DNA of 64,000 nt from an uncultured Candidatus Saccharibacteria bacterium. GTDB lineage: Bacteria > Patescibacteriota > Saccharimonadia > Saccharimonadales > 2-12-FULL-41-12. The DNA lies in assembly GCA_964444225.1 (NCBI GenBank), contig CAYUFM010000001.1:26216-90215 (forward strand). The letters run 5' to 3'. Shown piece after piece: positions 3,814-63,230 of this stretch. Under the pieces are notes generated by a model. It searched no databases and had not been told where the DNA came from. It was given only the letters and a program-made list of their open reading frames with translations. Position 1 is the stretch's first letter, and each line of letters starts with the position of its first letter. Made by a program: the position numbers and the translations under genes.

Positions 3814-4074
3814 TTAGTCTAACTTTTGATAAACCCTACCAGTTACTGCAAGCAAACTTAATCCTATGATTAACAGTATCCAGGGATGCTCAACAAACAA
3901 ATCTACGCGGTCAATTAGTTTCTCGAACCCATAAAATACAGAGACTAGTCCAAAGGTCGCGGACAGTGCAATCAGAATAGGAAACCGAGTTTGGACCCTT
4001 ACTCGCTCTTGAGCGATTTTTTCGATCATTTTTTCTTCTGCCTGAGTAAAAGGTATGAAATTTTTCTTTGCCAT
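3814..4074 (-). CDS. small membrane protein (86 aa)
   Basis: Two predicted transmembrane helices. Lies between the two kinase paralogs. Confidence 0.4.
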   Translation of the reverse strand: MAKKNFIPFTQAEEKMIEKIAQERVRVQTRFPILIALSATFGLVSVFYGFEKLIDRVDLFVEHPWILLIIGLSLLAVTGRVYQKLD

Positions 4075-4079: not shown

Positions 4080-4793
4080 TTATTCTAACTCTTTTAATAG
4101 TTGTTTTATAATTTCTCGTGCGTTGCTATCTTCTGAGGCATCCTTTACCCCGGATTCAAAATAGGCTAAAGCTAAGTTAGAAGCCCTAATTATGTCGTCA
4201 TTGATAACACAAAAATAACTTTCCTGAGCATCTGCGATTGATAGTTCTGTTTTAGCAGCCTGCATTCGCCTGTTCATTTCATCCTGATCCATTATCCGCT
4301 CATTTTGGATACGTTGTTTTAAAATATCTAAACTTGGCGGTACAACGAAAATAGTTTTCATATTTGAATTTAATTTACGCAGACCAATTTCTGTCTGGAC
4401 AACCAAGATTGCTAAGCCAATTTGCGCCTCATTTAGGCTTTGCACGTCAGCAAAATCTAGTGCAGACAACTGCTGGTTATGCACCAATGCCATCTGCAAA
4501 AATCTGCGATCTTCAAGACCTTGGTCAAAGAATTCTAAATCATGAAAATGATATTCAACTCCATCTTTTTCTCCATCGCGCATCGGGCGTGAAGTTGTAG
4601 ACAATATTTTTATAAATTTTTTATTTTCTACAAGTTTTTCTCGCAGGGTATCTTTACCAGCTCCAGTCGGACCTGCAATAACTCCAAAATTACTCCGTGC
4701 AAAATCATACACAACCTGACCATTGGGATGATAATTATCCGCTAGGATTTTATATTGCTCAGCTTCGCTACTAGTCAATAATCTCTGTTTCAC
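4080..4793 (-). CDS. guanylate kinase-like nucleoside monophosphate kinase (paralog 1)
   Basis: P-loop GPTGAGKDT; STTSRPMRDGE.DGVEYHFHD. Confidence 0.7.
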   Translation of the reverse strand: MKQRLLTSSEAEQYKILADNYHPNGQVVYDFARSNFGVIAGPTGAGKDTLREKLVENKKFIKILSTTSRPMRDGEKDGVEYHFHDLEFFDQGLEDRRFLQMALVHNQQLSALDFADVQSLNEAQIGLAILVVQTEIGLRKLNSNMKTIFVVPPSLDILKQRIQNERIMDQDEMNRRMQAAKTELSIADAQESYFCVINDDIIRASNLALAYFESGVKDASEDSNAREIIKQLLKELE

Positions 4794-10244: not shown

Positions 10245-11138
10245 TTATACAGACGATCTAGTCTGTATGCCAATCTGTTTAGTGGTAACCTCAAAATATC
10301 TATTTTTATCAATATCGGTTTTTGCTCCTGGCTTTAGAGTTTTGAGTTCATTTACTAATTTTTCGACTCGTTTTTTATCGTGCTTTGCGCCAAGTTCTTT
10401 GAGCCAAAAAACCATTAACTCGCAAGCAATTTTATGTGGTAAAGATACAAAAAAACTCCGGTCGAAGCATTGTTTTTGTTTATCATATCCATGACTAAAA
10501 ATACCTTCAATAAGCTGGTCCATCTCTAAGTTTCTAGCCGAGTTTGCAGACAACAAATCTTCTAGTTTTCCTTTTTGGCTGGGCGAAACTTCTTTTAAAA
10601 ATTTTCTGATTTTGTTACGAGTATATTTGGTTGATAAATTTGTCGGATCTTCACACCATACCAATTTTTTCTGTTTAGCGTATTTTAAAACTTCCGCCTT
10701 TCTATAGTCTAGTAGCGGACGAATGATTTTATCGGTAGTTCTGAGCGAAGTTAATCCAGATCTGGCTGTACCTCGTAACAAATTAAAAACCGCCGTTTCT
10801 AGTAGATCGTCTTTGTGATGAGCTGTAACTATCGCGTCAGCGCTATACTTTTTTACTGCTGATTCAAGAAATTTATAGCGCCGCGTCCGAGCCACTTCTT
10901 CGCTGGCGTCTGGACCTAAATTCTCTCTTTTATATTCAAATTGTAGCCCGTAATTTCTGGCTAGATCCTGTACGAACTTTCTGTCATTTACAGAATCTTC
11001 CCGAATACCATGGTCAAAGTGTGCCACTATGAATTCGCAATTACTCTGTTTATATAGCAAATCCAGCAGAACTACTGAGTCGACTCCGCCACTAACCGCC
11101 ACAACATATTTTCCTGGCTCAATATAAAACTTCATCAT
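10245..11138 (-). CDS. tilS: tRNA(Ile)-lysidine synthetase TilS
   Basis: PP-loop VAVSGGVDSVVLL (SGGxDS). Length 297 aa. Confidence 0.85.
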   Translation of the reverse strand: MMKFYIEPGKYVVAVSGGVDSVVLLDLLYKQSNCEFIVAHFDHGIREDSVNDRKFVQDLARNYGLQFEYKRENLGPDASEEVARTRRYKFLESAVKKYSADAIVTAHHKDDLLETAVFNLLRGTARSGLTSLRTTDKIIRPLLDYRKAEVLKYAKQKKLVWCEDPTNLSTKYTRNKIRKFLKEVSPSQKGKLEDLLSANSARNLEMDQLIEGIFSHGYDKQKQCFDRSFFVSLPHKIACELMVFWLKELGAKHDKKRVEKLVNELKTLKPGAKTDIDKNRYFEVTTKQIGIQTRSSV

Positions 11139-12336: not shown

Positions 12337-12413
12337 GGCAGCGTAGCTCAGTTGGTTAGAGCGCAGGACTCATAAGCCTGAGGTCACTGGTTCAAACCCA
12401 GTCGCTGCTACCA
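12337..12413 (+). tRNA. tRNA-Met (CAU), elongator type
   Basis: Cloverleaf GGCAGCG-TA-GCTC-AGTTGGTTA-GAGC-G-CAGGA-CTCATAA-GCCTG-AGGTC-ACTGG-TTCAAAC-CCAGT-CGCTGCT-A-CCA. Close to E. coli elongator tRNA-Met in the D-arm and T-arm. Confidence 0.85.
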
Positions 12414-15421: not shown

Positions 15422-15496
15422 TTTGGTAGCGGGGGTAGGACTCGAACCTACGACCTTGTGGTTATGAGCCACACGAGCTGCCACTGCTCTACCCCG
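15422..15496 (-). tRNA. tRNA-Met (CAU), initiator (fMet)-like
   Basis: CGCGGGG-TA-GAGC-AGTGGCA-GCTC-G-TGTGG-CTCATAA-CCACA-AGGTC-GTAGG-TTCGAGT-CCTAC-CCCCGCT-A-CCA. Near-identical in layout to E. coli tRNA-fMet, including an unpaired 1:72 position (C1 opposite U72) and A73. Confidence 0.8.
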
Positions 15497-15514
15497 CGAT
15501 AAATTAACTTCACC

Positions 15515-18701: not shown

Positions 18702-19938
18702 TACAGAGGAGCCACGTATTATGTTCATAGACCTCAACAGTGCCTTCGCTACGGCCGAGCAACAGGCTCATCCATCTCTGCGCGGTAGACCGATCGGCGT
18801 TACTAACCGTATTTCTAAATATTGTTGCGTGATTGCTTGTTCTTATGAGGCTAAGGCCTTTGGCATAAAAGTCGGCATGAACTTGCAAGAGGCACTAAAG
18901 ATTGCTCCGGATTTTGTGATGCTAGAAAGCGACCCGCCCAAATATCACTTCGTTTACCAAAAACTGGTCAAAATCATGAGTGATTATTCGCCAAATTTTC
19001 AGATGAAGTCAATAGACGAGGGTATCATCGACTTTCACGGTATGGATTATTTACTAAAAAACCGCACCATGTCAGACATCGGTTATGAGATTAAAAATCG
19101 CGTCAAAGAAGAAGTTGGCAACTACACAACCATCAATGTTGGCATTGCACCTAATCGGTTCCTCGCCAAACAGGCTGCAAACTGGCACAAGCCAAACGGT
19201 CTAGACGTCATAGATCATAACAATTTGCTTCAATACTACGAGGGTATAAAATTAACTGATCTAACCGGCATCGCCAAACGTTTTGAAGCTAGGCTCAAAG
19301 CTAGTAGTATTTTTACTCCTTCGCAGTTTTTTAATGCTTCGGCCGACACACTAAAACGTCACGTTTTTCATAGTGTCATTGGCGAAGATTGGTACAACCG
19401 CTTGCATGGCTGGGAGGTCGATCAACACCCGACTAATCGCGGCCAGGTCGGTCGGCAATTTGTGATGGATGTGCGCACCAGCGATGAAAAAATAATCCTG
19501 CCCCGCTTTCATTACCTGTGCGAAACTACCGGCAAAAAACTACGCCATATTGGCATGAATGCCCGCGGGATTATTGTTTGGGCTAACCTCCAAAACGGCG
19601 AACGCTGGCACGCTCGCACCACATTTACCTACTCTTTTTATACTGATAAACAAATCTACAGCCGGGCAAAAAAAATGTTCGACACTAGACCAAAGCACCT
19701 AATTATTGCGGCGACGGGCATTACTTGTTTTATGCTGGAGCCTTCTAACCGAGACCAACGTAGCTTGTTTGAAGAAATTAACAAAGAAGACCTACTAACC
19801 TTCGCCATAGATGAAATAAATGAACGATATGGTACTTTTATGATTTGTTCACTTAATTCTTTAGAGGGCAAAAAACGCGTCAAACAAAAAATCCCATTCG
19901 GTAGCGTCAATTATTTTGATATCCTCCTAAGGGGCTAG
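18694..19938 (+). CDS. Y-family DNA polymerase (DinB/UmuC-like)
   Basis: IMFIDLNSAFATAE (catalytic Asp), SIDEGIIDF (Asp-Glu pair), GIAPNRFLAKQAANWHKPNG, LTGIAKRFEARL. Aligns motif by motif with E. coli DinB. Confidence 0.8.
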   Translation: MINTEEPRIMFIDLNSAFATAEQQAHPSLRGRPIGVTNRISKYCCVIACSYEAKAFGIKVGMNLQEALKIAPDFVMLESDPPKYHFVYQKLVKIMSDYSPNFQMKSIDEGIIDFHGMDYLLKNRTMSDIGYEIKNRVKEEVGNYTTINVGIAPNRFLAKQAANWHKPNGLDVIDHNNLLQYYEGIKLTDLTGIAKRFEARLKASSIFTPSQFFNASADTLKRHVFHSVIGEDWYNRLHGWEVDQHPTNRGQVGRQFVMDVRTSDEKIILPRFHYLCETTGKKLRHIGMNARGIIVWANLQNGERWHARTTFTYSFYTDKQIYSRAKKMFDTRPKHLIIAATGITCFMLEPSNRDQRSLFEEINKEDLLTFAIDEINERYGTFMICSLNSLEGKKRVKQKIPFGSVNYFDILLRG

Positions 19939-20769
19939 AAAAAGAATCTTATTGCCCCATGGGTCATCAACTTCAATTTTTTGGTTTTTGTCTTGATATT
20001 TATACTCAAACTTTTGTAGCCTGTCAGATAAATTTGCAAGATCGCTACTCTCAGGCAAATGTATATCGAATTCTGCAAGTCCTAGAGCTGGGGTTCTTTT
20101 GCTGGCACCTTGGCTCATCCAGGTATTTGCTCCTATATGATGGTGATAGCCCCCAACAGACAGAAACAGTGCACTAGGCATATCAAACGTTATATCAAAC
20201 CCAAGTATGTCTACATAGAATTTACGTGCAGCAGGTATGTCGCCGACCCGCAAATGAACATGCCCTAGGTGTTTCTCGTCAACAACGCCATTTTTTAGGT
20301 ACTGAGTTATATAGTTCTCAGGGTCGATGTATAAAGTATCCATTGCGATGCGCCCATTGTGCCACTGCCAGTCTTTGCGTGGTCGGTCAAAGTATAGCTC
20401 CAGTCCGTTACCCTCCGGGTCATGAAAATAAAAAGCTTCACTAACCAAATGATCCCCTGTGCCTTCATACAGATGAGGTGCTCGCACAAGTATGTTTTTA
20501 ACTGCTTTTGCTAACTGCGACCGTGACCCATAAACAACCGCGTTGTGAAATAATCCTGCACTAGGCATATGTGCAAATTTTAGGTTAGGCTTCTTTGTTA
20601 ATTTAATTATGGGATTTTTATCAAAACCAAGGATTGTATGGTTGGTAGTTTTATCTAAAATTTCAAACCCCGCGGTATCAGCATAAAAATCTGTCATCTT
20701 AGTTAAATCATTAACAAACAGTTCGGAGGGCGCTAATTTTACATCCTTTGCAAGAATTGATTCTTTCAT
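19927..20769 (-). CDS. VOC family protein (glyoxalase / extradiol-dioxygenase-like, two-domain)
   Basis: HLGHVHLRVGDIPAARKFYVDILGFD and an N-terminal FYADTAGFEIL repeat of the VOC fold. The start is probably the internal Met at 20769 (MKESIL) or further downstream (MTDFYAD). Confidence 0.7.
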   Translation of the reverse strand: MKESILAKDVKLAPSELFVNDLTKMTDFYADTAGFEILDKTTNHTILGFDKNPIIKLTKKPNLKFAHMPSAGLFHNAVVYGSRSQLAKAVKNILVRAPHLYEGTGDHLVSEAFYFHDPEGNGLELYFDRPRKDWQWHNGRIAMDTLYIDPENYITQYLKNGVVDEKHLGHVHLRVGDIPAARKFYVDILGFDITFDMPSALFLSVGGYHHHIGANTWMSQGASKRTPALGLAEFDIHLPESSDLANLSDRLQKFEYKYQDKNQKIEVDDPWGNKILFLAP

Positions 20770-20770
20770 G

Positions 20771-20793
20771 GTCACTATACATTGTATAGTGAC
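20771..20793. promoter_or_regulatory. 23-bp perfect palindrome GTCACTATACA-T-TGTATAGTGAC (putative HxlR-type operator, copy 1)
   Basis: 11-1-11 inverted repeat abutting the VOC gene start. The same sequence recurs at 29310-29332. Confidence 0.5.
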
Positions 20794-20944
20794 TGTACAA
20801 AAAATCAAGTTTATATATAAAATCTTGCAACGAAAAGGCAGGCGAAACGTTTATGATAATTATCACAGTTTTTTGTTGATATGCTTCACAGCTATTTCTC
20901 ATGTTAATGGCTATAGTTAGAGTTGCACGAAGGGAGGTGCAGAT

Positions 20945-21127: not shown

Positions 21128-21310
21128 ATGTTTTTAGAACTAAAAGTTTACCCTAACGGCAAACTAGTTCAAGACGATAAAATACATGAATCTCGCCAGA
21201 GTATTAAGGCCATACCAACAAAAACCAGGTTAGTCTTTAGCAAGCGCTCGTCACTAAAAAGACATGTGTTTAGCAATGCCCGCAACCATGGGTGGATTAA
21301 CGAGCCCTAA
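21128..21310 (+). CDS. small protein (60 aa), hypothetical
   Basis: Strong SD AAGGAGGA 6 nt before the ATG. Confidence 0.4.
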   Translation: MFLELKVYPNGKLVQDDKIHESRQSIKAIPTKTRLVFSKRSSLKRHVFSNARNHGWINEP

Positions 21311-22898
21311 GCCTAGATAGTAGTCTAGAAATCTCACTACGCCATTCATAGACAGCGTATATTAGTAGTGCTCCAACTATTAATCCAAAAACTACATAGT
21401 TGTTTTTGTTTTTAGTAGACGTGGGTACGTCTGTAACTTTTGCTGAAGCTACTTCACCAACAGCAGTAATTTTACGGCAACGGTTAGTTTCTGGGTTGCG
21501 CTCTTCCCCAGGATCACATGACGTTAATGCCGAAGCAGTATCTGCAAAGGCTCGACACCTGTTTGTTTCAGGATTTCGTTCTTGACCTGCTTTACATGGG
21601 ACCAAACTATCAGTCTGGGCAATTGACCTACACCTATTTGTTGTAGGGTTGCGCTCTTGTCCTGCCTCGCACGGTTTTAGTTCTGAATCTCCACCCGTAC
21701 TAGCAACTTCTTCCGTAAATAAAGAAATCATATTAGCTGAATCTGGAGTTGGCCTATTTGTAAATTGCCAAACATCATTTATTAGTGCCCAAGCCTCGTC
21801 GTCCTCGGGAGAATCGTAAACAGCCGTCTCACTTACAGCGTTGCCTGCTGGCGCAATTAAGCGAACTGAAGCCGAACTGTTAGGCAGGGTTAACTTACTC
21901 AACAAATCACTAAATGTCACATAACTAAACGGATCCAAAAGCCGATTTTCCAATACATAAATCTTTGAGTAGGCCGGTCCTAACTGCAATTTATACCCTT
22001 CTAGCTGTATAGCCTTAGGGTTAGGATTATAAATTTCAATATATTCTTTACCTGTGTCTGTGCTGGACACATTTGGCAAAAGTTCTGTGATGGTTAAAAT
22101 CGAACTTTCCAAAACCACGACCTTTTCTGTGCAGTTCTCACCGTCCAAACTTTCATAACCAGACGGAATTATTGCCTGCAAACCAGCTATGTTGTCACAG
22201 ACGTCTTGCGCGCATTCACCACCAACAAGAAAATAGTCGTCAGGAACAGTCGTCTGCACTCCATCAATATTGGCGCAGACATCAACCAACACTTCCTCTT
22301 CTACGATTCCACTGTTAGGAATTATAGACAAAATAACTGATGTAAAGTCCGTACTATTGTCATTGTTATCTTGCAAAAATTGCACATCGTTTATTTTCTT
22401 ACGCTCAAAGACAGAGCCAGAAGGATATGGTGCAACGGCCACGCCTTCAGGAGACGTCGCTGTGCCCCAACCTAATTTATCGATTTCTATTGCGTCTTTA
22501 TCGTGCAGTCTTATGTGTCCCCCACTAGCAGCCATACCAGAGGTAAAGATTGCATCAGGTATTAACCCAGGGGTTGCAGACACAAACTCCGAGCTCGCAA
22601 AAGTTGCATAGCTAAAGGCAGAGAGCATCAATCGTATATTGTCTGCCGGCGCCTCCAAGCACGCTAATTTTGTCTTGGTAGCATCAGATGCTGACGCGTA
22701 ATAAATACACCAGTCAGTAACATCGATTGGTTCTTCGCTATTGTTATAAATAGACACAAACTCTCTGCTAAGGGCACTACTTTCGCCGGTTTTTACGTGT
22801 CCTAGTACTGGTTTTTCACCAAGCGCAGAAGCAAGATTGCCGCAAATTATTACAGTCGCAACAAACAACGTAAGAAACCTTGTGACCCTCTGAAACAT
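21297..22898 (-). CDS. cell-surface protein with lamin-tail (LTD) domains, Cys-rich repeats and a C-terminal TM anchor
   Basis: Signal peptide; LTD signature TGKEYIEIYNPNPKAIQLEGYKL; three repeats of C.AGQERNP.TNRCR; C-terminal TM FGLIVGALLIYAVY. Confidence 0.6.
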   Translation of the reverse strand: MFQRVTRFLTLFVATVIICGNLASALGEKPVLGHVKTGESSALSREFVSIYNNSEEPIDVTDWCIYYASASDATKTKLACLEAPADNIRLMLSAFSYATFASSEFVSATPGLIPDAIFTSGMAASGGHIRLHDKDAIEIDKLGWGTATSPEGVAVAPYPSGSVFERKKINDVQFLQDNNDNSTDFTSVILSIIPNSGIVEEEVLVDVCANIDGVQTTVPDDYFLVGGECAQDVCDNIAGLQAIIPSGYESLDGENCTEKVVVLESSILTITELLPNVSSTDTGKEYIEIYNPNPKAIQLEGYKLQLGPAYSKIYVLENRLLDPFSYVTFSDLLSKLTLPNSSASVRLIAPAGNAVSETAVYDSPEDDEAWALINDVWQFTNRPTPDSANMISLFTEEVASTGGDSELKPCEAGQERNPTTNRCRSIAQTDSLVPCKAGQERNPETNRCRAFADTASALTSCDPGEERNPETNRCRKITAVGEVASAKVTDVPTSTKNKNNYVVFGLIVGALLIYAVYEWRSEISRLLSRLRAR

Positions 22899-22925
22899 AA
22901 AAAAAGTATAAAAATAAATTGTCTA

Positions 22926-24395
22926 CTAATCAATAATCATTTTGTCTTTTAGAAAATTATGTTTTGTTTTAAACTTTAGCATAATAAGCGTGGCCGTTAT
23001 GCCAATATAACTGATTACGAGAGTCGCAAAACTTATATCCATTTCGCCCGCAACACCAGGAAAAACCGAGATTTTATCGATGACAAAAGTACAATAATTT
23101 AGCAACCAAATTGCTGGGATAGATAAAACTCCAGCCAAAAACGGCAGAAACAAGCCAGCAAGTCCACTAAGAAAAACTGCACCCATAGCCATTGGAATAG
23201 CCGGCAAGACCAGTGCATTGGCAATCAAAGAATAAAATGAGAATGTACCAAAAGAATACAAAAGTATAGGTAGTGTCATTAGCTGAGCCGATAAAGTAGC
23301 TACCAATAATTCACGCAACCACGACGGCTTTTTATCTTTTCCCCAAAAATAATCATGAATTAACGGTGCGAGTATTAACACTCCCACAAAAGCCAGAAAC
23401 GATAAATACCAACCAAGGTCACCCCAAATATAGCTAGGTTTTATCATCAAAGTAATTCCGCCGGCTACAAGCAAAAGTACACCAGGATGAATTTTTCGTC
23501 CATAGTACCAAGCGAGCAGACTCAAGCCCGCAACCAATCCAGCACGTGACATAGACGGGCTAAATCCTGTGACCATAATAAATCCAGCTATCATTCCTCC
23601 AGCCACCAATGCACTAAGATATTTGGAGATCTTGGCAAAAATTTTACGCGCAAAGGCCACTAGAATCGTTAGGTTATAGCCACTAGCAACTACAATGTGT
23701 GATAAGCCTAAAAGTTTGATCTGATTCTGTAGATCTTCTGGTAAATCATTTTTTTGTCCCAGCAAGAAACCTAGACCAAGAGATCTTTGAGGCTCTTCAA
23801 TATTACCAACCGTAGCATTAGCAAAATTATCGCGCACCCGCAGTCCGAGGTCTTGCTGACTTTCTTTAGTGATTTCAACTACATCTGCATTAGACGCGCT
23901 AGCAAAAAAACTTCCAAAGCCTTTGTTGATACCGGTATTTATCTCCACTATGTCACTCCGCTGAATTTTTGCATCATCCCGTGTACTGACCCGAACCTCA
24001 CCGTTTAACAGCGTATTGCCGATAGATACTTTATCTAGCTTAAATCTAACCTCACCGCTTTTTCCATGCGAAATATCATCTACAACTTTTCCTTTTAGAG
24101 TTACGGTTTTACCAATATATGGACTAAAGCTATTTTTACTAAATTCATACGCGCTACTTCGCCAAATCCCGATACAAAAACCAGAGACTAAAATCACCAG
24201 CAAGAAAACTCGCCTGAATTTAAAAATACCCATAATCAACAAACCTAGCCCAATAGCCAGAAAAATATTGTCTTTAAAAATTGCTTCGATAGTATATAAA
24301 CTTGCAACTATTCCTAGGACCAGTCCTATAAAAAAGAAGATCACAAAATAGTAGATATGAACTTTTTCGCTTAGCCACTTTTTTGAGATTTTCAT
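22926..24395 (-). CDS. comEC: DNA internalization competence protein ComEC/Rec2 (no metallo-beta-lactamase domain)
   Basis: N-terminal OB/DUF4131-like region plus a polytopic competence domain (LGLSHIVVASGYNLTIL). The probable start is the internal Met (MKISKK) at about 24395, which is adjacent to the stop of the upstream nuclease gene. Confidence 0.75.
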   Translation of the reverse strand: MKISKKWLSEKVHIYYFVIFFFIGLVLGIVASLYTIEAIFKDNIFLAIGLGLLIMGIFKFRRVFLLVILVSGFCIGIWRSSAYEFSKNSFSPYIGKTVTLKGKVVDDISHGKSGEVRFKLDKVSIGNTLLNGEVRVSTRDDAKIQRSDIVEINTGINKGFGSFFASASNADVVEITKESQQDLGLRVRDNFANATVGNIEEPQRSLGLGFLLGQKNDLPEDLQNQIKLLGLSHIVVASGYNLTILVAFARKIFAKISKYLSALVAGGMIAGFIMVTGFSPSMSRAGLVAGLSLLAWYYGRKIHPGVLLLVAGGITLMIKPSYIWGDLGWYLSFLAFVGVLILAPLIHDYFWGKDKKPSWLRELLVATLSAQLMTLPILLYSFGTFSFYSLIANALVLPAIPMAMGAVFLSGLAGLFLPFLAGVLSIPAIWLLNYCTFVIDKISVFPGVAGEMDISFATLVISYIGITATLIMLKFKTKHNFLKDKMIID

Positions 24396-25120
24396 TCTGA
24401 TACTATTGGTAATTTTTGGTCTGGACAACTGCTTAGCACCCGCTTTATGGCGTCTTTTTCTGCACTCGTTACCCAAAGTTTATATTTAGCCTTAACAGCT
24501 ATTTGGCGCGCAACATATTGGCATCGGTAGCCTTTATTTGGCGGTAGCCAAGAGGCTGCATCGGAGTTGCTTTTGTCCTGGTTGGTCTGACCGTCAACAG
24601 CCAAGAGATTGAGTGCATCGTTAGCAAACAATTCTCTTTGAGCAGGAGTGAGTAGCTGAGCACCTTTTTGCCAAGCATCTGACAAAGCTACAATGTGGTC
24701 TATTTGCACGTCATCACTAGTACCATTGCCTCTTACAAAATTTATAACCTTGCTCGTGTATGGATCACTCAGTGTACCCGATAAAACCGTGCAGTCTGTA
24801 AATGAACGAGTTTTTACGTCCACCAAATCACGCTTTAAAATATAATTACGAGTATCACACCCCACTAATTCTGCCCAACCTTGCCCAAAATGCGAGCGCC
24901 TATAATCACTCTTTGGAGCCCTGCCCTTAACCTCCAGCCTACCCAAAACCTCGCTTGCAATCTCAGAACTAGCACCCAAAACATTACTATCGACAGAACT
25001 AGTACTACTAGTTTGACTTGGAGTAGGTGCGTTGTTTTTAGGGCCATCGATAAACGACATCAATAAGCCAATTAGGCTCAGTATAACTACTACAAAAAAC
25101 CTTCGGCCTCGCTCTGTCAT
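24392..25120 (-). CDS. membrane-anchored extracellular nuclease-like protein (DUF1524 / HNH-like)
   Basis: N-terminal TM, Ser/Thr linker, then IDHIVALSDAW...FANDALNLLAVDGQTNQDKSNSDAASWLPP, typical of DUF1524 excreted-nuclease domains. Confidence 0.55.
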   Translation of the reverse strand: MTERGRRFFVVVILSLIGLLMSFIDGPKNNAPTPSQTSSTSSVDSNVLGASSEIASEVLGRLEVKGRAPKSDYRRSHFGQGWAELVGCDTRNYILKRDLVDVKTRSFTDCTVLSGTLSDPYTSKVINFVRGNGTSDDVQIDHIVALSDAWQKGAQLLTPAQRELFANDALNLLAVDGQTNQDKSNSDAASWLPPNKGYRCQYVARQIAVKAKYKLWVTSAEKDAIKRVLSSCPDQKLPIVSE

Positions 25121-25199: not shown

Positions 25200-25868
25200 G
25201 TGAGAATATTAATTATTGAAGATGACCACAAGATTGCTGCCGCGCTAAAACGTGGGTTACAGCAAGAAAATTTTGCCGTAGATATAGAGTACGACGGCAC
25301 TAGTGGCTATGGTGCTGCCTCTACTTTGGACTACGACCTTTTAGTGCTAGACAGAATGTTGCCAGAAATGTCAGGTGAGGAAATCTGCCAAAAACTACGT
25401 AAAGAAAATATTCATACCCCAATAATCATGCTTACAGCCAAAGGCGAAATCTCAGACAGAGTTAGCGGACTCAACGCGGGGGCAGATGATTACTTGGTAA
25501 AGCCATTTTCCTTTGAAGAATTGCTTGCTAGAATTCACGCCCTGCTACGACGTCCCAAAAACACAATTACAGATGAGTTGAAAGTCGGTAACCTAACACT
25601 TAACACGTTAAGCTTTTTTGTTAGCCGTGATGACTCCCCTATTCAATTAACTAGTAAGGAATTTGCACTGCTAGAATATCTAATGCGCAACCAAGGCCAA
25701 ATATTATCTAAAGAAAACATTATAGAACATGTCTGGAATTTTGATGCAGACATTTTGCCCAATAATGTTGAGGTCTACATGGGATATTTGCGTAACAAGA
25801 TTGACAAAGGCCACAAGCAAAAGTTGCTTCACACTATCCGCGGATTTGGCTACAAGGTACAGGCATGA
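25200..25868 (+). CDS. OmpR-family response regulator
   Basis: Receiver domain (ILIIEDD, phospho-acceptor Asp in LLVLD) plus winged-helix trans_reg_C. The start appears to be GTG. Confidence 0.9.
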   Translation: MRILIIEDDHKIAAALKRGLQQENFAVDIEYDGTSGYGAASTLDYDLLVLDRMLPEMSGEEICQKLRKENIHTPIIMLTAKGEISDRVSGLNAGADDYLVKPFSFEELLARIHALLRRPKNTITDELKVGNLTLNTLSFFVSRDDSPIQLTSKEFALLEYLMRNQGQILSKENIIEHVWNFDADILPNNVEVYMGYLRNKIDKGHKQKLLHTIRGFGYKVQA

Positions 25869-26866
25869 ATGCAAAACAATTATCACGCTTAAAAGTTAGT
25901 GGCACATACCTCAGCATAGTTATGTTGATGAGCATTATTTTTAGTTTTGCGATTTATCAAATCTCGGACCGAGAGTTATCTCAACAGCGCCGAGTTGAAA
26001 TTCCACACGGTATTCGTGGTTTTATCTCACTCAACGAATTCGATATTCTGCGCCAACAGCAACTAGAACAGTCTCGTGATAATTTAAGGCAAAAATTGAT
26101 TACTTTTAACCTGCTTACCTTGGCTGGTGGGGCGTTTTTAAGTTACTTTCTAGCACTCAGATCTCTAAAACCTATAGAAGACGCCTTGGAAAAACAAGAC
26201 CGCTTCACCAGTGATGCATCGCACGAGATACGAACACCACTAACAGTAATGCGAAGTGAAATTGAAGTTGCCTTACGTGATAAAAAATTCAATTTAACAG
26301 ATGCCAAGAACACCCTTAACAGCAACCTGGAAGAGATCACTAGGTTAGAGGCTCTGACTTCTGGACTATTACAGCTGGCTAAACAAGAAAATAACCCTAA
26401 TCTCAAGCAAACTTTAAAGGCTGGCCAGGTAATTAAGCAAGCGATAGAAAAAACTGGTGCTTTGGCCGACGCAAAGAATCTAAAAATAAAATTCGTAGAA
26501 GCGAAAGACACAGAAGTTTATGCGGAGCCCGGTAGCTTACTCCAACTTATGGTAATACTGCTAGATAACGCCATAAAATATAGCCCAAAAAAGGGCGAAG
26601 TTACGGTCACTACTAAAAATCTGAGAGCCTCTACAGAAATTCGTGTTAAGGACAATGGTCCAGGTATTAACCCTAAAGATCTGCCTCATATCTTTGATAG
26701 ATTCTATAGGTCTGATTCTGCACGCAGTAAATCGGCAGAACAAAACGGCTATGGGCTAGGTCTAGCAATCGCCAAGCAAATCGTTGCATCGCATAGTGGC
26801 GAAATAAATATAAAAAACCTACCAAAGTCTGGCACCCAGGCAACAATTGTATTACCTAAAAAATAA
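25865..26866 (+). CDS. sensor histidine kinase
   Basis: H-box SDASHEIRTPL, N/G boxes DNGPGI...GYGLGLAIAK. The 4-nt overlap with the response regulator gene indicates translational coupling. Confidence 0.85.
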   Translation: MNAKQLSRLKVSGTYLSIVMLMSIIFSFAIYQISDRELSQQRRVEIPHGIRGFISLNEFDILRQQQLEQSRDNLRQKLITFNLLTLAGGAFLSYFLALRSLKPIEDALEKQDRFTSDASHEIRTPLTVMRSEIEVALRDKKFNLTDAKNTLNSNLEEITRLEALTSGLLQLAKQENNPNLKQTLKAGQVIKQAIEKTGALADAKNLKIKFVEAKDTEVYAEPGSLLQLMVILLDNAIKYSPKKGEVTVTTKNLRASTEIRVKDNGPGINPKDLPHIFDRFYRSDSARSKSAEQNGYGLGLAIAKQIVASHSGEINIKNLPKSGTQATIVLPKK

Positions 26867-28005: not shown

Positions 28006-28081
28006 GGGGGTGTAGCTCAGTGGTTAGAGCAGTCGGCTCATAACCGATTGGTCCCTGGTTCAAGTCCAGGCACCCCCACCA
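28006..28081 (+). tRNA. tRNA (CAU), most similar to tRNA-Ile2 (lysidine-modified) and therefore the likely TilS substrate
   Basis: GGGGGTG-TA-GCTC-AGTGGTTA-GAGC-A-GTCGG-CTCATAA-CCGAT-TGGTC-CCTGG-TTCAAGT-CCAGG-CACCCCC-A-CCA. Near-identical to E. coli tRNA-Ile2 across the D-arm, variable loop and T-arm. Confidence 0.7.
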
Positions 28082-28148: not shown

Positions 28149-28718
28149 ATGAAAAAAATTAATCAAAAAGGTTTTGGGGCAATTGAAGGCTTGCTAGCAG
28201 TTATTGCCGTATCGTTAGTTTTTGGTATTGGGTTTTATGTTGTGAACTCCAACAAAGATAATAAAAAGACTGAAACAACCAATTCAGTCCCTCAAAAATC
28301 TGATGAAAAACTAACCGAGCAACCAAAGATTGAATATATTGAACTTAAGGACCTAGGTGTAAAAATTGAAAAGAACAAAGTAACTGATAAATTTACATTT
28401 ACCCTAATTGCAACAGGCGTTAGTGTAACTTCAAATGAATTAAAAATGCTTGAAGATAAAAACTGCTCTGTTGAGGCAGGTGGAGTAGGCGCTGTTAATT
28501 CGTTAGTAAAAGTTACGGGGACATTTAACCAAGAGGCCAACCCCTTCTCCAGCCTTGTCAAACAATTCTCTAATTTTTTTATTATTAGCAATGGTACCGC
28601 CAATGGCTTTGCCTGCACAGCAGAGTCTGAAGCTTTAGTTAAAGAAGTAAGCGATAAAAGAACAAGTCTTGCATCTGAGCTACAACAAGAATTAAAGAAA
28701 ACTTCGATTATTGAGTAG
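28149..28718 (+). CDS. type IV pilin-like protein
   Basis: Class III signal peptide: KG|FGAIEGLLAVIAVSLVF, with Glu at +5 of the predicted mature N-terminus and a hydrophobic helix. Confidence 0.6.
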   Translation: MKKINQKGFGAIEGLLAVIAVSLVFGIGFYVVNSNKDNKKTETTNSVPQKSDEKLTEQPKIEYIELKDLGVKIEKNKVTDKFTFTLIATGVSVTSNELKMLEDKNCSVEAGGVGAVNSLVKVTGTFNQEANPFSSLVKQFSNFFIISNGTANGFACTAESEALVKEVSDKRTSLASELQQELKKTSIIE

Positions 28719-34539: not shown

Positions 34540-35451
34540 CTACGAAACTGCAGTATGAACACCAAGATAGTTGCTCCGATAACTAACATCCATCATATTT
34601 ATACCCACTTTACCATTTTTATGGGCCCAGAGACCAATAGCAGCATTCCTAAGCTCATCATTGTATGTTCCGTCTAACCAAGACCAGGTTCGTTGGTCGA
34701 TTGGAGGTTGGTAGTCTTGCAGTAGGCTAGCTTGGAGACTTAGGTACTCTGGGATGGTGGTGTACTTCTCTCCTGCCCGTATGTATTGATCATGACTAAC
34801 GCCTAGGTTCTGAGGTGTATCCGTAGCTGAGATAAGCCTTAGAGTCCATAGATTTGTTGGGTGGCTAGCGTTTGAGATTGGGGCTTCAATGGTTGGGGTA
34901 GCGTCAGGTATCTGCATGCCTAGCTCTATCCAGTTGTTAGTTATTTCTGGTTTTATATATAGACCACCATCCCTAATCCTCTTGTCTTCTTCTTTGCCAC
35001 TGGCTGGAATTGGATTAACAATTGGGTCGTCTTCAAGCTTCTTGTAGAGTTCTTTCCAGTGATCTACGGTTAAACCATAGGGTGCTAGGACTAGTCTTGG
35101 CTCTAGACCTTCTGTCTTCATGTGTTGGTATTCATGACCTAGGTATACAAAGTCTATACCTGAGTTAACTATTGTATCAACATCAGGGGGAGTTATACCT
35201 ATCCGAGCGAATAATCGTTCTGTACTAGACAGGAAGTGCTCAAAGCTTTGTCTAGTTTCTGAGCCTGGGATCATGTCTAGAGATACAGACCCTGGAACTG
35301 GAGCTGGAGCTAGGGCATTGGCATCACTGCCCAGACTTTCGGCCTGGGCTAGTTTATCGGCAGATGATAATCCTAAGTTACCTAGTGTAGCTTTAACCAT
35401 ACCTGGAGTTAGCAGATCTGGGTTGGTTTTGCGGAGGGCTTCGAGGGACAT
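34540..35451 (-). CDS. hypothetical protein, paralog A (303 aa), distal gene of the vWA operon
   Basis: Start is 2 nt after the stop of the vWA gene. The first 164 codons are identical to the gene at 38718..39626. C-terminal 35 aa are unique. Confidence 0.6.
   Translation of the reverse strand: MSLEALRKTNPDLLTPGMVKATLGNLGLSSADKLAQAESLGSDANALAPAPVPGSVSLDMIPGSETRQSFEHFLSSTERLFARIGITPPDVDTIVNSGIDFVYLGHEYQHMKTEGLEPRLVLAPYGLTVDHWKELYKKLEDDPIVNPIPASGKEEDKRIRDGGLYIKPEITNNWIELGMQIPDATPTIEAPISNASHPTNLWTLRLISATDTPQNLGVSHDQYIRAGEKYTTIPEYLSLQASLLQDYQPPIDQRTWSWLDGTYNDELRNAAIGLWAHKNGKVGINMMDVSYRSNYLGVHTAVS
34960..35451 (-). repeat. inverted repeat arm A (492 bp, 1 mismatch to arm B)
   Basis: Reverse complement equals 38718..39209 except one synonymous C/T. 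Checked block by block across the whole arm. Confidence 0.9.
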
Positions 35452-35453
35452 GC

Positions 35454-37223
35454 CTATATGTACCTTCCAGTATAATTAGCTAAAACTTCTAACAGTGCCA
35501 CAGGCAGAACAGAGGGGTCAGACATTGTCCTCATATTTGGGGTAACTGACCTATAACCACCAATATTAAATTGGCCAACATAAGTATTTTTTGGGAATGA
35601 ATTAACAGTTGCTTGCGCCTGATAGTGATCATGAAAATCGCCGTCAGTAATTATCAAAATTATATTGTCTCGTCCAGAGTCGGCGGGACCGCCGCAACTT
35701 AAAAGGGCATCATTTACAAATGTTGCACTACTGGTAGGGTTCGATAAATTTGTAAATGTAGCCCCTTTCTCAGCAGGCGTAGGTTGATAACTAACAGCAG
35801 AAAGTTCTAAGGCATCAGAGCCAAAGGCTACAATATGCGTCCTAACATCTGGATTAGACACGCCAGTGTCTTTGGCGACTTGGGCTCGGGCCAGCTGGAG
35901 GCCTTCTAGCAGGCACAACGCTGTCGTTGCAGCTGACTGTGCTTTATTGCCGCTTCCCATCGACCCACTAACATCGACTAATAGATGAATATCTAGTCCA
36001 CTAAATGTCAGTTTTTCAGTTTTGTCAGACCTGGTAATCGATCGCCAAACTGCTTGTTGATCACCAGTTAATTTTTGCGTCACCAAACCCGTAACCGCAG
36101 TACTGTGTAAGATTGGTCCGTCATTAGTAGGTTTACGGCCATAAGTTAGTCGATGGTTTAAGAATGCTGGCTTTGTTAAAGTTTTTAACACTTCAGCAAT
36201 ACTTTTTATTATATGAGCGTGTTGCAAACTTGCTCTAGTGTAGGCCTCTGCATCGCCAGGTAGTAACCCCATTTCTTTGGCTATTTTTTCCGCCAGTTCG
36301 TTGAATTGTTCGCGCGACAAGCCATCTTCGGTTTTTTTGGTGTCTACCGTGTCAACCGGTTCTGTATCTTCAGTTTTTTCCGATGTATCTTTTTCGTCTT
36401 CTTTGCCATCAAAGATCTTCAATATTCTTTTACCTAATCCCTCTAATCTACCGGCTTCTGTTTTTGGCCCACCAGGTAGCTTATCTACTTGCCTAACTTC
36501 AATTTGTTCTTCGGTATACTCTTCAATTATTTCTTCAAGGCGCTCACCTTGCCCGGATTCTTTATCTTGTTCGACCAATTTATCGTACGCTGGTTTTATA
36601 TAACGATTAGCAATATTTCTACGATTGATTAGATCGGTTCTAGGATCAGTTAGAGTTTCTATAATATCAAATTTATCACCCGTTTTTGTAGTGTAGTTTT
36701 TGAGGTTGTCGATTATACCGTTAACTTCGGGGTGTAGCTCCAAGCTTTCACCTGTTACCTCACCGATTCTTATGCCCCACATTAACTGAGCAGATAAAGG
36801 CATCTCCGCAATTTTTTTAGCTTCTGGCATAACATCACCATATAGATCCATGACATCCTGCTTGATCCCAGGTAACCTGCATAATCGACTATCTATAACT
36901 ACATCATCAGCTAAGCAATAAAAAAAATGATCGGTTGGTGATCTTTTGGCCAACACATCTTCAGGACTTGCAATCATATCTATCGCATGACCAACTTCGT
37001 GTAATGACACCACAAGTGCTCTTTCCTCTGATACATCGCCTGTTGTTTTATCGGCAATTTGTTGGGGATCAATATTAATTCTTATTCCAGTCGGCTCGGC
37101 AATACAATATGAACCATTGTCACTAGATTCGGTTGTTGCTGTCATGCCACGCATCCCATAAACAGCCGATGCTAAAGTAGCTAGATCAGCTATTTCTTGA
37201 TGGGGCTGAGTATGTTCACTCAT
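35454..37223 (-). CDS. vWA-domain protein with N-terminal HExxH zincin-like metallopeptidase motif
   Basis: HEVGHAIDM in the N-terminal third. MIDAS DVSGSMGSGNK (DxSxS) in the C-terminal vWA. The likely start is MSEHTQ at 37223, not the ORF start at 37295. Confidence 0.75.
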   Translation of the reverse strand: MSEHTQPHQEIADLATLASAVYGMRGMTATTESSDNGSYCIAEPTGIRINIDPQQIADKTTGDVSEERALVVSLHEVGHAIDMIASPEDVLAKRSPTDHFFYCLADDVVIDSRLCRLPGIKQDVMDLYGDVMPEAKKIAEMPLSAQLMWGIRIGEVTGESLELHPEVNGIIDNLKNYTTKTGDKFDIIETLTDPRTDLINRRNIANRYIKPAYDKLVEQDKESGQGERLEEIIEEYTEEQIEVRQVDKLPGGPKTEAGRLEGLGKRILKIFDGKEDEKDTSEKTEDTEPVDTVDTKKTEDGLSREQFNELAEKIAKEMGLLPGDAEAYTRASLQHAHIIKSIAEVLKTLTKPAFLNHRLTYGRKPTNDGPILHSTAVTGLVTQKLTGDQQAVWRSITRSDKTEKLTFSGLDIHLLVDVSGSMGSGNKAQSAATTALCLLEGLQLARAQVAKDTGVSNPDVRTHIVAFGSDALELSAVSYQPTPAEKGATFTNLSNPTSSATFVNDALLSCGGPADSGRDNIILIITDGDFHDHYQAQATVNSFPKNTYVGQFNIGGYRSVTPNMRTMSDPSVLPVALLEVLANYTGRYI

Positions 37224-37227
37224 AATA

Positions 37228-37256
37228 TTGACAATATTAACATAAAATGCTACAAT
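37228..37256 (+). promoter_or_regulatory. sigma70 consensus promoter TTGACA-N17-TACAAT driving the AAA gene. The -35 is embedded in the palindrome AATATTGACAATATT.
   Basis: Perfect -35 and -10 with 17-nt spacing. The ATG at 37265 lies about 8 nt past the -10, so the mRNA could be leaderless. The 15-bp palindrome spans 37224-37238. Confidence 0.45.
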
Positions 37257-37264
37257 TGTAAAGT

Positions 37265-38716
37265 ATGAATAATCATAAAACCCCAGAACGGGCAACTTTT
37301 ATGTGTCCGGGCACAGATGAATGTCGAGCTTTATGTCAAGCCTTAGGCAGACAAGGTCTAGATGCCACTGATCTAGGAGTTGCCGGTAGTTGTGGTGTGC
37401 CGGAATTATTAGTATCCGACGGGCAAACAACACATGTCAATGGCTTAGAAGGTCAGCTTGCTGACAAACTTGCTTCTGGGCTAGCAAATCATCTAGCTCG
37501 TTATCATGAAGATCAGACAGAACGCGAAGCAATAGCCACAGTAAAGGTTGACTATAGGGCCGTTTTTGAAGCTAGAAACAATATGTTCAGCGCAATGTTG
37601 AGTGCCACCAAGGCAGGTCAGAGGTTTACGGCTGAAGAATTAGAATTTTATGAAAATCAAACCAAACAAGCAGAAGCACAATTAGCAAAAACTGCGGAAG
37701 GCCGAGATTCATTAGAAGTAGTATTAGGCCAGGCGTCATTTGATGCAGAAGTATTGGCAGAAACTGGCTTAGTTTTTGACCCACAAATGGTTAATAATAT
37801 TCAAAGAATTGTCACTAATACCGTAAACGGAAAACCAACTCTAGTAACCGGCAATAAAGGCATAGCCAAAACAGCCGCCTTTAAGTATGTCAGCCGACTA
37901 ATCGCCCCAGATAAAGCACCCTTGATAATTAGTGGGCACGGTGACATGATGACTCACGAGTTGATTGGCAGGACTGACCAAGACCCCGATAGTGATGAGC
38001 TAAAGTTAAAATTCAAAGATGGCAAGATAATTAAGGCCATGCGCGAAGGTAGGCCGGTTCTTTTAGACGAAGTAAACGTGGCCGATCAATCAGTTATGAT
38101 GCGTCTAAACGATATTATGCTTATGCGACCAGGCGATAAAATTGTCTTGCAAGAAAATGGAGATGAAGAAATCGAAATTCAGCCCGGTTTCTGTATATAT
38201 ATGACAGCAAATATCGGGCAAAGATACTCGGCACGTCAAGAGCTGGATACAGCTTTTAAAGACAGGGCAGATATAATTAAGTGTGATTACCCCGACACGT
38301 CCAGACAACCTTTAGGAGATAATATGCCAATAACTCTCAGACATGCATTTGCCATGGCTACAGATACAGACGGACGTCTTAGCCCGCACATTAATCCGGA
38401 TGAGCTGGTCAAGCTAGCTCGTTATGCACATGTATCCCAGCAGTTATACTCTCAACCATCCAAGAATGTAGCCGATGCACTCACCGGAATAAACTTTGCA
38501 GATAGAAGTGCCTTAACTTCCTATGTTGATGATGAGCCTGTTATGTCTGATTGTATAACTCCACGGTCAATGTTTGAGGCTATAGCCAATGCTAAACATG
38601 GCAACCGGCCAGGTGTAAGTTTAGTAAGCGAAATTGAACGCTTAGTTAGTGCACTCGACAATGAAGGCAGTTATAACGCAGATGTGCTGAATAAGGTGCT
38701 GATCAAGGTGCTTTAA
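37265..38716 (+). CDS. MoxR/CbbQ/NorQ-type AAA+ ATPase with a Cys-rich N-terminal extension
   Basis: Walker A GNKGIAKT, Walker B VLLDEVN, then SVMMRLNDIML, FCIYMTANIG, LDTAFKDRADIIKCDYP (AAA_5 pattern). About 190-aa N-terminal region with CPGTDEC...C...C. The start may be Met-13 (37301). Confidence 0.75.
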   Translation: MNNHKTPERATFMCPGTDECRALCQALGRQGLDATDLGVAGSCGVPELLVSDGQTTHVNGLEGQLADKLASGLANHLARYHEDQTEREAIATVKVDYRAVFEARNNMFSAMLSATKAGQRFTAEELEFYENQTKQAEAQLAKTAEGRDSLEVVLGQASFDAEVLAETGLVFDPQMVNNIQRIVTNTVNGKPTLVTGNKGIAKTAAFKYVSRLIAPDKAPLIISGHGDMMTHELIGRTDQDPDSDELKLKFKDGKIIKAMREGRPVLLDEVNVADQSVMMRLNDIMLMRPGDKIVLQENGDEEIEIQPGFCIYMTANIGQRYSARQELDTAFKDRADIIKCDYPDTSRQPLGDNMPITLRHAFAMATDTDGRLSPHINPDELVKLARYAHVSQQLYSQPSKNVADALTGINFADRSALTSYVDDEPVMSDCITPRSMFEAIANAKHGNRPGVSLVSEIERLVSALDNEGSYNADVLNKVLIKVL

Positions 38717-38717
38717 C

Positions 38718-39209
38718 ATGTCCCTCGAAGCCCTCCGCAAAACTAACCCAGATCTGCTAACTCCAGGTATGGTTAAAGCTACACTAGGTAACTTAGGATT
38801 ATCATCTGCCGATAAACTAGCCCAGGCCGAAAGTCTGGGCAGTGATGCCAATGCCCTAGCTCCAGCTCCAGTTCCAGGGTCTGTATCTCTAGACATGATC
38901 CCAGGCTCAGAAACTAGACAAAGCTTTGAGCACTTCCTGTCTAGTACAGAACGATTATTCGCTCGGATAGGTATAACTCCCCCTGATGTTGATACAATAG
39001 TTAACTCAGGTATAGACTTTGTATACCTAGGTCATGAATACCAACACATGAAGACAGAAGGTCTAGAGCCAAGACTAGTCCTAGCACCCTATGGTTTAAC
39101 CGTAGATCACTGGAAAGAACTCTACAAGAAGCTTGAAGACGACCCAATTGTTAATCCAATTCCAGCCAGTGGCAAAGAAGAAGACAAGAGGATTAGGGAT
39201 GGTGGTCTA
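38718..39209 (+). repeat. inverted repeat arm B (492 bp)
   Basis: See arm A. A further 300 bp or so continues at roughly 90% identity before the sequences diverge completely. Confidence 0.9.
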
Positions 39210-39626
39210 CACATTGACAATAGAGTGGCTATCAACTGGACAGAGCTAGCCATGCAGATACCTAAAGCCACCCTAGCCATTAAAAGCCCAATCTCAAACG
39301 CTAGCCACCCAACAAATCTATGGACTCTAAGGCTTATCCCAGCTACGGATAGGCCTCAGATCCTAGGCACTAGTCATAATCAATACGCACCAGTAATAGT
39401 ACAACACACCACCATCCCAGAGTACCTAAGTCTCCAAGCTAGCCTACTGCAAGACTGCCAAGCACTAGTAGACCCACATACCTGGTCCTGGCTAGACGGA
39501 ACATACAATGGAGGTACGACTGCCCCAGGTGGTGGCTGGAGCTCTGCTGGAGGGTGGGTGAATGTAGGCTGGTGTAAGACCGATGATAAGCACGATGAGC
39601 TTGGTACTCGTCCTCCGAGATGGTGA
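38718..39626 (+). CDS. hypothetical protein, paralog B (302 aa), distal gene of the AAA operon
   Basis: ATG lies 1 nt after the AAA gene stop. N-terminal 164 aa identical to paralog A. Gly/Trp-rich unique C-terminus. Confidence 0.6.
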   Translation: MSLEALRKTNPDLLTPGMVKATLGNLGLSSADKLAQAESLGSDANALAPAPVPGSVSLDMIPGSETRQSFEHFLSSTERLFARIGITPPDVDTIVNSGIDFVYLGHEYQHMKTEGLEPRLVLAPYGLTVDHWKELYKKLEDDPIVNPIPASGKEEDKRIRDGGLHIDNRVAINWTELAMQIPKATLAIKSPISNASHPTNLWTLRLIPATDRPQILGTSHNQYAPVIVQHTTIPEYLSLQASLLQDCQALVDPHTWSWLDGTYNGGTTAPGGGWSSAGGWVNVGWCKTDDKHDELGTRPPRW

Positions 39627-52511: not shown

Positions 52512-52603
52512 AAAAATACCCTTCTCATCTCGAGCAAGGGCATATGCTTCTTTGCTCGGAAGACTTTATAGCTGTATCGGACTTTAACCGTTGCGGCACA
52601 GTT

Positions 52604-63133: not shown

Positions 63134-63230
63134 AAGCTCTTAATATTATACCAATACCGGTTGTTGTAAATTTATAATTGTGCCAAACTGCTTTAGTTTA
63201 TTGAAAAAAATAGAGTTATAATTTTTATCT

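Follow-up and report, generated by a model that had tools for sequence, protein, structure and literature searches.

A comEC operon with a membrane-anchored nuclease and a lamin-tail surface protein is a candidate DNA-uptake locus in Saccharibacteria

Two nucleases with transformation phenotypes, EndA of Streptococcus pneumoniae and NucA of Bacillus subtilis, together with the metallo-β-lactamase (MBL) domain of ComEC, are among the closest precedents for the role that we propose for the nuclease described here, as each places an outward-facing, membrane-held nuclease beside the ComEC channel. EndA is a His-Me-finger enzyme that carries a DRGH motif and falls in the Endonuclease_NS group (PMC5714182). 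In the Saccharibacterium Southlakia epibionticum, deletion of comEC abolishes natural transformation (Wang et al. 2023, PMC10633639), and comEC, comF and dprA make no contribution to fitness (PMC10633639). MBL-fused ComEC is essentially absent from bacteria of the candidate phyla radiation (CPR; PMC6744442), and 14 of 51 species known to be competent have a ComEC with the DUF4131 plus Competence profile (PMC6299819), so a ComEC without the MBL domain is ordinary. Here we describe a three-gene locus in a window of 64,000 nucleotides (nt) from an uncultured Candidatus Saccharibacteria bacterium (Saccharimonadales; GenBank assembly GCA_964444225.1, contig CAYUFM010000001.1, positions 26,216 to 90,215). 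It encodes a predicted extracytoplasmic nuclease, an MBL-less ComEC and a surface protein with two lamin-tail domains (LTDs). With confidence evenly divided, we propose that this operon provides the cytoplasmic-membrane stage of DNA uptake in natural transformation, with the nuclease processing DNA and the LTD protein serving as an extracytoplasmic partner. The MBL-less ComEC of CPR bacteria and the need for comEC were already known; in the literature searched we found no description of conserved nuclease and LTD partners of comEC, and no paper linking DUF1524 with ComEC or the lamin-tail domain with Patescibacteria.

The three genes lie head to tail on the minus strand, spanning 25120..21297 (Table 1). 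The nuclease stop and the comEC start share a 4-nt ATGA overlap, and 27 nt separate the comEC stop from the ATG of the LTD gene. We placed the comEC start at the ATG of MKISKK, in agreement with an NCBI protein of identical length (489 amino acids (aa)); the mechanical open reading frame (ORF) call begins at an upstream TTG within the nuclease gene. These results bear out the architecture given in a preliminary description of the locus: three packed minus-strand genes with spacers of 0–30 nt, encoding a DUF1524-type nuclease with an N-terminal transmembrane (TM) segment and a Ser/Thr-rich linker, a ComEC/Rec2 without the C-terminal β-lactamase-fold domain, and a 533-aa protein with two LTDs, an EYIEIYNP motif, three Cys repeats and a C-terminal TM helix. 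A pattern scan of the region for promoters and terminators returned site counts not above those expected from shuffled sequence, and the operon boundaries are therefore drawn from spacing and synteny only. Judged from sequence, the locus is beyond chance, given the strong family E-values and a gene order that is kept among relatives down to ~41% ComEC identity.

The identity of ComEC is secure on the strength of its family matches, and its function in DNA import is predicted through orthology. The protein matches the Pfam families Competence (PF03772; E = 7e-38, 130.9 bits against a cutoff of 23) and DUF4131 (PF13567; E = 1e-9, 38.7 bits against 31.6) and scores 68.4 bits with TIGR00360 (cutoff 36.5). 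Its score with the full-length equivalog TIGR00361 is 51.5 bits, under the cutoff of 190, and a Pfam scan of the protein found no Lactamase_B. It aligns with residues 221–467 of the 801-aa solved ComEC 30bt_A (E = 1.8e-16), which cover the TM domain only, and it ends ~40 aa past the aligned region; the C-terminal MBL domain is therefore absent. No MBL domain was found among the other window ORFs scanned (nearly all of those of 80 aa or more), and RNase J is the only MBL protein in the supplementary tables of PMC10633639, our source for all S. epibionticum locus data. The same tables, which cover a complete annotated genome, list no ComEA Pfam domain. With neither an MBL nuclease on ComEC nor a ComEA listed in a transformable relative, other proteins must bind and cut DNA or remove the non-transported strand.

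The first gene of the operon encodes a candidate for such a protein. Its 242-aa product has a single Pfam match, to GmrSD_C/DUF1524 (PF07510; E = 1.1e-22, 80.8 bits against a cutoff of 23, profile positions 1–136 of 138). Sequence searches of the PDB, with the single sequence and with a profile, gave no meaningful match, so the fold was assigned through an AlphaFold2 (AF2) model and Foldseek. The model (pLDDT 87) is a compact α/β domain with a ββα core (strands 138–142 and 172–176, helix 177–182), and its top matches in the PDB are periplasmic or extracellular endonuclease I enzymes (Vvn, V. cholerae; probability 0.96–0.99), at a modest E-value of ~0.015 and TM-scores of 0.3–0.4. The HNH domains of Cas9 and the GmrSD enzyme BrxU follow in the list. 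Similarity to endonuclease I is at the fold level only, as the protein has no Pfam match to PF04231; the two are alike in being extracytoplasmic, but endonuclease I enzymes are soluble bulk DNases. Vvn-type enzymes are disulfide-stabilised, and the nuclease here has four Cys residues (C88, C110, C200 and C232) that are invariant across 53 homologues. Its likeness to EndA is functional and topological, as it belongs to another His-Me group: the Pfam scan gave no match to PF01223 or PF13930 at E ≤ 0.01, and the motif is QIDH, not DRGH.

The catalytic residues of the DUF1524 domain have been retained. H142, N167, N180, K183, D187 and W191 are invariant across the 53 homologues, and D141 and N171 are conserved in at least 90% of them. 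Neither of the two observations named in the preliminary description as refuting, an intact β-lactamase domain elsewhere or missing catalytic residues, was thus made. The nuclease is also the most conserved of the three proteins (55–85% identity among the top 120 homologues). The family consensus opens with M-x-E-R-x-R-R followed by a hydrophobic run, and the linker between the TM helix and the folded domain reads NNAPTPSQTSSTSSVDSNVLGASS. From the positive-inside rule applied to the Arg-rich N terminus, and from the invariant Cys pairs, we infer an N-in, C-out topology. The Arg-rich N terminus, TM helix and four invariant Cys thus support placing the nuclease domain on the membrane face where the OB-fold and MBL domains of ComEC lie. 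An intact nuclease domain, in the right compartment and translationally coupled to comEC, points to a DNA-processing role like that of EndA or NucA.

As GmrSD_C is the sole Pfam match and BrxU appears as a weak structural match (rank 32), the protein might instead be a GmrSD-type (type IV) restriction enzyme or another anti-phage nuclease. We consider this very improbable and rejected it on architecture. The Pfam scan found no N-terminal DUF262 (ParB-like NTPase) domain in this single-domain protein, the TM anchor and the invariant Cys would put the domain outside the cytoplasm, away from replicating phage DNA, and none of the three operon proteins is hit by a PADLOC defence model.

The third gene encodes a type-I membrane protein that matches PF00932 in two stretches (E = 1.1e-15, 58.3 bits against a cutoff of 34.3). 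Its AF2 model (pLDDT 83.9) consists of all-β LTDs and small Cys modules, in the order signal peptide, LTD1, two Cys modules, LTD2, three Cys hairpins, TM helix and basic tail, and Foldseek matched it to the immunoglobulin (Ig)-fold tails of lamins A, B1 and B2 (probability 1.00, TM-score 0.61–0.69; 0.66–0.69 relative to the target for the lamin A/B Ig fold). Several features are kept across the family: C64 and C80 in LTD1 and E285, E288 and N291 in LTD2 are invariant, and the Cys residues of the two small modules, which match no Pfam family, are nearly so. The hairpin repeats, CEAGQERNPTTNRC, CKAGQERNPETNRC and CDPGEERNPETNRC, begin at residues 410, 435 and 461 and number four copies in 50 of 60 homologues; their match to the tumour necrosis factor receptor (TNFR) family TNFR_nem (PF25314) is weak, with E = 0.023 here and 1e-6 in homologues. 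We found no catalytic domain in the protein, the other Pfam matches at E ≤ 1 being limited to the weak TNFR_nem hit and ANATO noise, and the scan found no helix-hairpin-helix (HhH; PF12836) or SLBB domain.

The preliminary description had pointed out that LTDs recur next to surface proteins that handle nucleic acids. Xds of V. cholerae is one LTD-bearing extracellular nuclease, and haloarchaeal LTDs are fused with MBL and thermonuclease domains. Extracellular nucleases of several folds carry a fused LTD, one of these folds being the endonuclease/exonuclease/phosphatase domain of ExeM (PMC6085458), and members of the DNase I family have either an LTD or, in its place, a ComEA-type HhH2 DNA-binding module (PMC4486849). 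ExeM of Shewanella, haloarchaeal Hvo_1477, ComA-like MBL–LTD proteins and LTD-fused DNase I enzymes all present the LTD as a secreted or anchored module in extracellular DNA handling. In all these proteins, of the ExeM/NucH/Xds type, the LTD is fused to a catalytic domain, whereas here it is separate, with the nuclease polypeptide encoded two genes upstream.

As a separate observation on surface proteins, the window also encodes a 949-aa protein with a GDSL-lipase domain and a C-terminal TM helix (57248..60097, minus strand), and in one relative (locus L086, 7429..10278) a protein matching it in length and domains directly follows the LTD gene.

To assess the conservation of this gene order, we scanned genomes by ComEC alignment, which gave 80 species-level loci, nearly all titled Saccharibacteria or Saccharimonadales, and searched the ORFs at these loci with hidden Markov models; layouts were counted in the 57 species-level loci with full flanks. 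Of these 57 loci, 53 have the LTD gene after comEC, in two mutually exclusive layouts: ComEC–YebC–LTD (35 loci) and the nuclease–ComEC–LTD triad seen here (18 loci). The remaining layouts, in which no LTD gene was found, were ComEC–YebC (3 loci) and nuclease–ComEC (1 locus). When flanks of up to 6 kb were examined, 55 of 59 loci had the LTD gene on the comEC strand, downstream of comEC. Separate contig look-ups showed the triad at 77, 54, 49 and 47% ComEC identity, and one relative has a variant with a three-LTD, 845-aa surface protein. In a rough neighbour-joining tree of ComEC, loci with the nuclease layout make up a basal, paraphyletic group, and those with the YebC layout arise inside it at two or more points, so the triad looks old and long retained. 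In the YebC layout (for example, L073 7476..12257 and L087 3570..13008) the order is comEC-yebC-[LTD]-ruvC-ruvA-ruvB, with the LTD gene between yebC and ruvC, and in L087 recA-recX lies 3 kb beyond the ruvCAB cluster. These surroundings are a DNA uptake and recombination neighbourhood.

S. epibionticum carries the YebC layout. Its ComEC (SEML1_0777; about 485 aa) has the same Pfam profile, DUF4131 plus Competence without MBL, and an LTD gene lies downstream of comEC in both organisms. Here comEC follows a coupled nuclease gene and the LTD gene comes directly next, whereas in S. epibionticum yebC (SEML1_0776) stands between comEC and the LTD orthologue (SEML1_0775, labelled 'TNF receptor-like' by DPAM), ruvC (SEML1_0774) begins 5 nt past the LTD gene, a gene for a transglycosylase domain protein (SEML1_0773) comes after it and the nuclease, a DUF1524 'HNH endonuclease' (SEML1_0519), is encoded elsewhere in the genome. 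Transposon sequencing (Tn-seq) calls at T0/T1/T2 were NE/NE/NE for SEML1_0777, SEML1_0776 and SEML1_0519 and NE/GD/ES for SEML1_0774 and SEML1_0773 (PMC10633639).

Together, these observations lead to the following proposal. ComEC, with its extracytoplasmic OB fold and multi-pass channel, would carry single-stranded DNA inward. Beside it, the membrane-tethered and presumably disulfide-stabilised His-Me-finger nuclease would cut incoming duplex DNA, degrade the non-transported strand, or both. At the cell surface, the LTD protein would present DNA or the nuclease to ComEC, in the manner of a scaffold or receptor, or alternatively it may have a surface or host-contact role and merely share the operon; its part in DNA uptake is more weakly inferred than that of the nuclease. 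We regard the locus as a version, specific to this lineage, of the known Com uptake system; its two conserved accessory proteins are candidates, and every step beyond ComEC is putative.

The preliminary description had suggested that the locus serves nucleotide scavenging or transformation. A ComEC-centred operon in a CPR bacterium with a reduced genome fits such an apparatus, but scavenging through ComEC is contradicted by the Tn-seq data of S. epibionticum: comEC, dprA and the DUF1524 gene are non-essential there, and for this reason we favour transformation over nucleotide scavenging for the ComEC route.

Several observations weigh against our proposal, the first of which concern the nuclease. 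It lies directly upstream of comEC in only 26 of 73 loci (36%), so this linkage is missing in about two-thirds of the sampled relatives. In S. epibionticum, the one Saccharibacterium with demonstrated comEC-dependent transformation and the one YebC-layout genome in which we looked for the nuclease elsewhere (using the published tables), the gene is unlinked to comEC, non-essential and not flagged as core. Furthermore, the solved structures nearest to its fold (endonuclease I, Dns and Vvn) belong to enzymes that degrade DNA in bulk and do not act in uptake. Dns of V. cholerae in fact limits DNA uptake and antagonises transformation. The nuclease could therefore be a general surface DNase that breaks down environmental or host DNA to feed the cell with nucleotides, clears extracellular DNA or limits uptake, its adjacency to comEC being a lineage-specific accident of gene order. 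CPR bacteria, which lack nucleotide synthesis and for which DNA scavenging has long been proposed (PMC6744442), would have a use for such an enzyme. We regard this explanation as possible though rather unlikely: the ATGA overlap couples the nuclease translationally to comEC, the nuclease–ComEC order persists over deep, paraphyletic lineages, and the enzyme is tethered to the membrane, not released. In co-culture, moreover, S. epibionticum grows without the DUF1524 gene, which therefore provides no major nutritional route there. An earlier suggestion was that the anchored nuclease could supply the activity usually carried by ComEC. Given its orientation, its intact residues and its coupling to comEC, this is a reasonable idea, but the partial and, in S. 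epibionticum, absent linkage weakens it.

The other points on that side concern the LTD protein. SEML1_0775 is a core, Patescibacteria-enriched family member and class II essential, while comEC, yebC and dprA are non-essential (PMC10633639), so the main role of the LTD protein may be independent of ComEC. Where the two are separated in YebC-layout loci, such as L081, L076 and L052, the LTD gene tracks yebC, not comEC. LTD1, the Cys modules and LTD2 are consistently acidic across the family (mean net charges of −8.5, −11.3 and −9.2), unlike a simple DNA-binding receptor; the basic parts are the cytoplasmic tail (+3.5) and the membrane-proximal Cys-repeat stalk (+3.3), the only basic part of the ectodomain. 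The ectodomain of a DNA receptor is expected to carry positive charge, and the idea of the LTDs as electrostatic DNA binders is weakened accordingly. In ExeM, moreover, DNA degradation depends little on the LTD (PMC6085458). The LTD protein may thus act partly or wholly outside DNA uptake.

One explanation along these lines is an envelope or host-contact protein (an adhesin, a scaffold or a cation-binding stalk) needed for epibiotic growth and without a part in DNA uptake, whose shared transcript with comEC stems only from ancient gene order. We hold this to be a serious contender, at slightly less than even weight. In addition to the essentiality and the acidic ectodomain, it is favoured by an architecture of Ig folds and Cys repeats without a catalytic domain, and by the membrane targeting that has been proposed as a role of LTDs (PMC6085458). 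Three observations run counter to it: the LTD gene is kept downstream of comEC across nearly all examined relatives in two different layouts, the second of them amid ruvCAB and recA; enzymes that act on extracellular DNA, with several unrelated folds among them, repeatedly bear LTDs; and the essentiality of SEML1_0775 may be a polar effect on the closely spaced ruvC and on the transglycosylase gene downstream.

For our proposal, a receptor role like that of ComEA is only one option for the LTD protein. The two would be analogous as single-pass anchored extracytoplasmic proteins encoded next to comEC, in a lineage with a relative that has no annotated ComEA, but the LTD protein differs from ComEA in lacking HhH and SLBB domains, in its C-terminal anchor and in its acidic ectodomain. 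A bolder version, which we think improbable, is a re-tooled competence machine in Saccharibacteria and perhaps other CPR bacteria, in which the DUF1524 nuclease replaces the MBL domain or EndA, the LTD protein replaces ComEA, and the fitness-essentiality of the LTD protein would mean that its surface module also serves in taking up material from the host cell.

Table 1 Features of the operon and its possible members in the window
Feature	Coordinates	Strand	Details
Gene 1, signal-anchored extracytoplasmic His-Me-finger nuclease (DUF1524/GmrSD_C), predicted	24392..25120	−	242 aa
Arg-rich N-terminal segment and TM helix of nuclease (signal anchor)	25055..25117	−	Residues 2–22; AF2 helix 2–22
Ser/Thr-rich disordered linker of nuclease	24965..25033	−	About residues 30–52; AF2 pLDDT <50 at 32–50
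His-Me-finger catalytic core of nuclease	24581..24700	−	D141-H142 ... N171 ... N180-K183; 53-homologue alignment
Gene 2, ComEC/Rec2 DNA channel without MBL domain	22926..24395	−	489 aa
ComEC DUF4131 (OB-fold) region	23937..24260	−	Residues 46–153; PF13567
ComEC Competence (TM channel) domain	22974..23765	−	Residues 211–474; PF03772, profile positions 2–268 of 270
Gene 3, type-I membrane-anchored surface protein with two LTDs	21297..22898	−	533 aa
Sec signal peptide of LTD protein		−	Residues 1–25 (...ASA↓LG); precedes LTD1
LTD1	22329..22811	−	About residues 30–190; all-β, AF2 pLDDT >90
Two small Cys modules	22119..22307	−	Residues 198–260; family consensus VDxCxNIxGxQxxxPxGY
LTD2 with EYIEIYNP motif	21753..22103	−	Residues 266–382; best Pfam LTD stretch 268–357
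Three TNFR-like hairpin repeats	21471..21671	−	Residues 410–476; regular expression C-x3-[QE]-E-R-N-P-x-T-N-R-C
C-terminal TM anchor of LTD protein, followed by basic cytoplasmic tail	21342..21404	−	AF2 helix, residues 500–518
Terminator-like hairpin, possible operon end	21145..21165	−	Pattern scan; ~130 nt past LTD stop; weak evidence
Divergent OmpR-type response regulator and HisKA kinase, possible operon regulators	25200..26866	+	Membership uncertain
ORF with prepilin-type N terminus, possible pilin	28149..28718	+	KG↓FGAIE and hydrophobic helix; membership uncertain

To look for an MBL protein or a ComEA elsewhere in the window, we ran Pfam with concatenated queries on nearly all ORFs 80 aa or longer; the four exceptions were 19927..20808, 25200..25868, 25865..26866 and the likely spurious 63146..63769. 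Within this set we found no Lactamase_B, no HHH_3 or SLBB (ComEA), no DprA or ComF, and no pilus ATPase, PilC or N_methyl domain, so the scanned ORFs include neither comEA nor pilus-machinery genes. The divergent response regulator and kinase next to the nuclease gene may regulate the operon. Their domains were taken from the ORF translations and from the Pfam matches of the orthologues in locus L003 (Response_reg with Trans_reg_C, and HisKA with HATPase_c), and the same divergent arrangement with the nuclease occurs in L003, L006, L008 and L020, the closest relatives. A type IV pilin-like gene had also been noted nearby. This ORF (28149..28718) is the only one in the window with the prepilin motif G↓F-x-x-x-E, but it has no Pfam or NCBIfam match, including to PF07963 and TIGR02532, and the scanned window ORFs include no pilus-machinery genes; for want of a family match it stays a lead only.

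Other parts of the window hold several features of separate interest. An inverted repeat at 34540..39626 (arms 34659..35452 and 38717..39510; 498 nt at 99% and 282 nt at 85% identity) is formed by the 5′ parts of two paralogous ~300-aa ORFs without a Pfam match. Each of these follows one gene of a divergent pair, encoding a von Willebrand factor A (VWA)-domain protein (35454..37295, minus strand) and an AAA_5/MoxR-like protein (37265..38716, plus strand), and the region may have arisen by recent duplication or may contain a 3.3-kb segment that can invert. An AdoCbl-II (B12) riboswitch (52565..52641, minus strand) scores 43.2 bits, above the gathering score of 36.5. The ORF just downstream of it (51390..52511, minus strand; 373 aa) has a Cys-rich C terminus and no Pfam family, and is an uncharacterised gene under B12 control within a reduced genome. 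Three tRNA genes with a CAT anticodon (12337..12413, 15424..15498 and 28006..28081) presumably represent the initiator, the elongator and tRNA-Ile2, and a TilS-like PP-loop gene is found at 10245..11138. Two guanylate-kinase-like genes (3068..3796 and 4080..4793, minus strand), both matching PF00625, flank an 86-aa ORF (3814..4074).

Natural competence is the only current route to the genetic manipulation of Patescibacteria, and the gene neighbourhood described here names two concrete candidates for DNA binding and processing, both of which have counterparts within an existing genetic system (SEML1_0519 and SEML1_0775 of S. epibionticum). If our proposal fails, what is left is comEC with a surface DNase on one side and a surface protein on the other. 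If it holds, it would give extracytoplasmic DUF1524 proteins a physiological role and bacterial lamin-tail domains their first defined one, and transformation protocols for bacteria of uncultured lineages could be improved.

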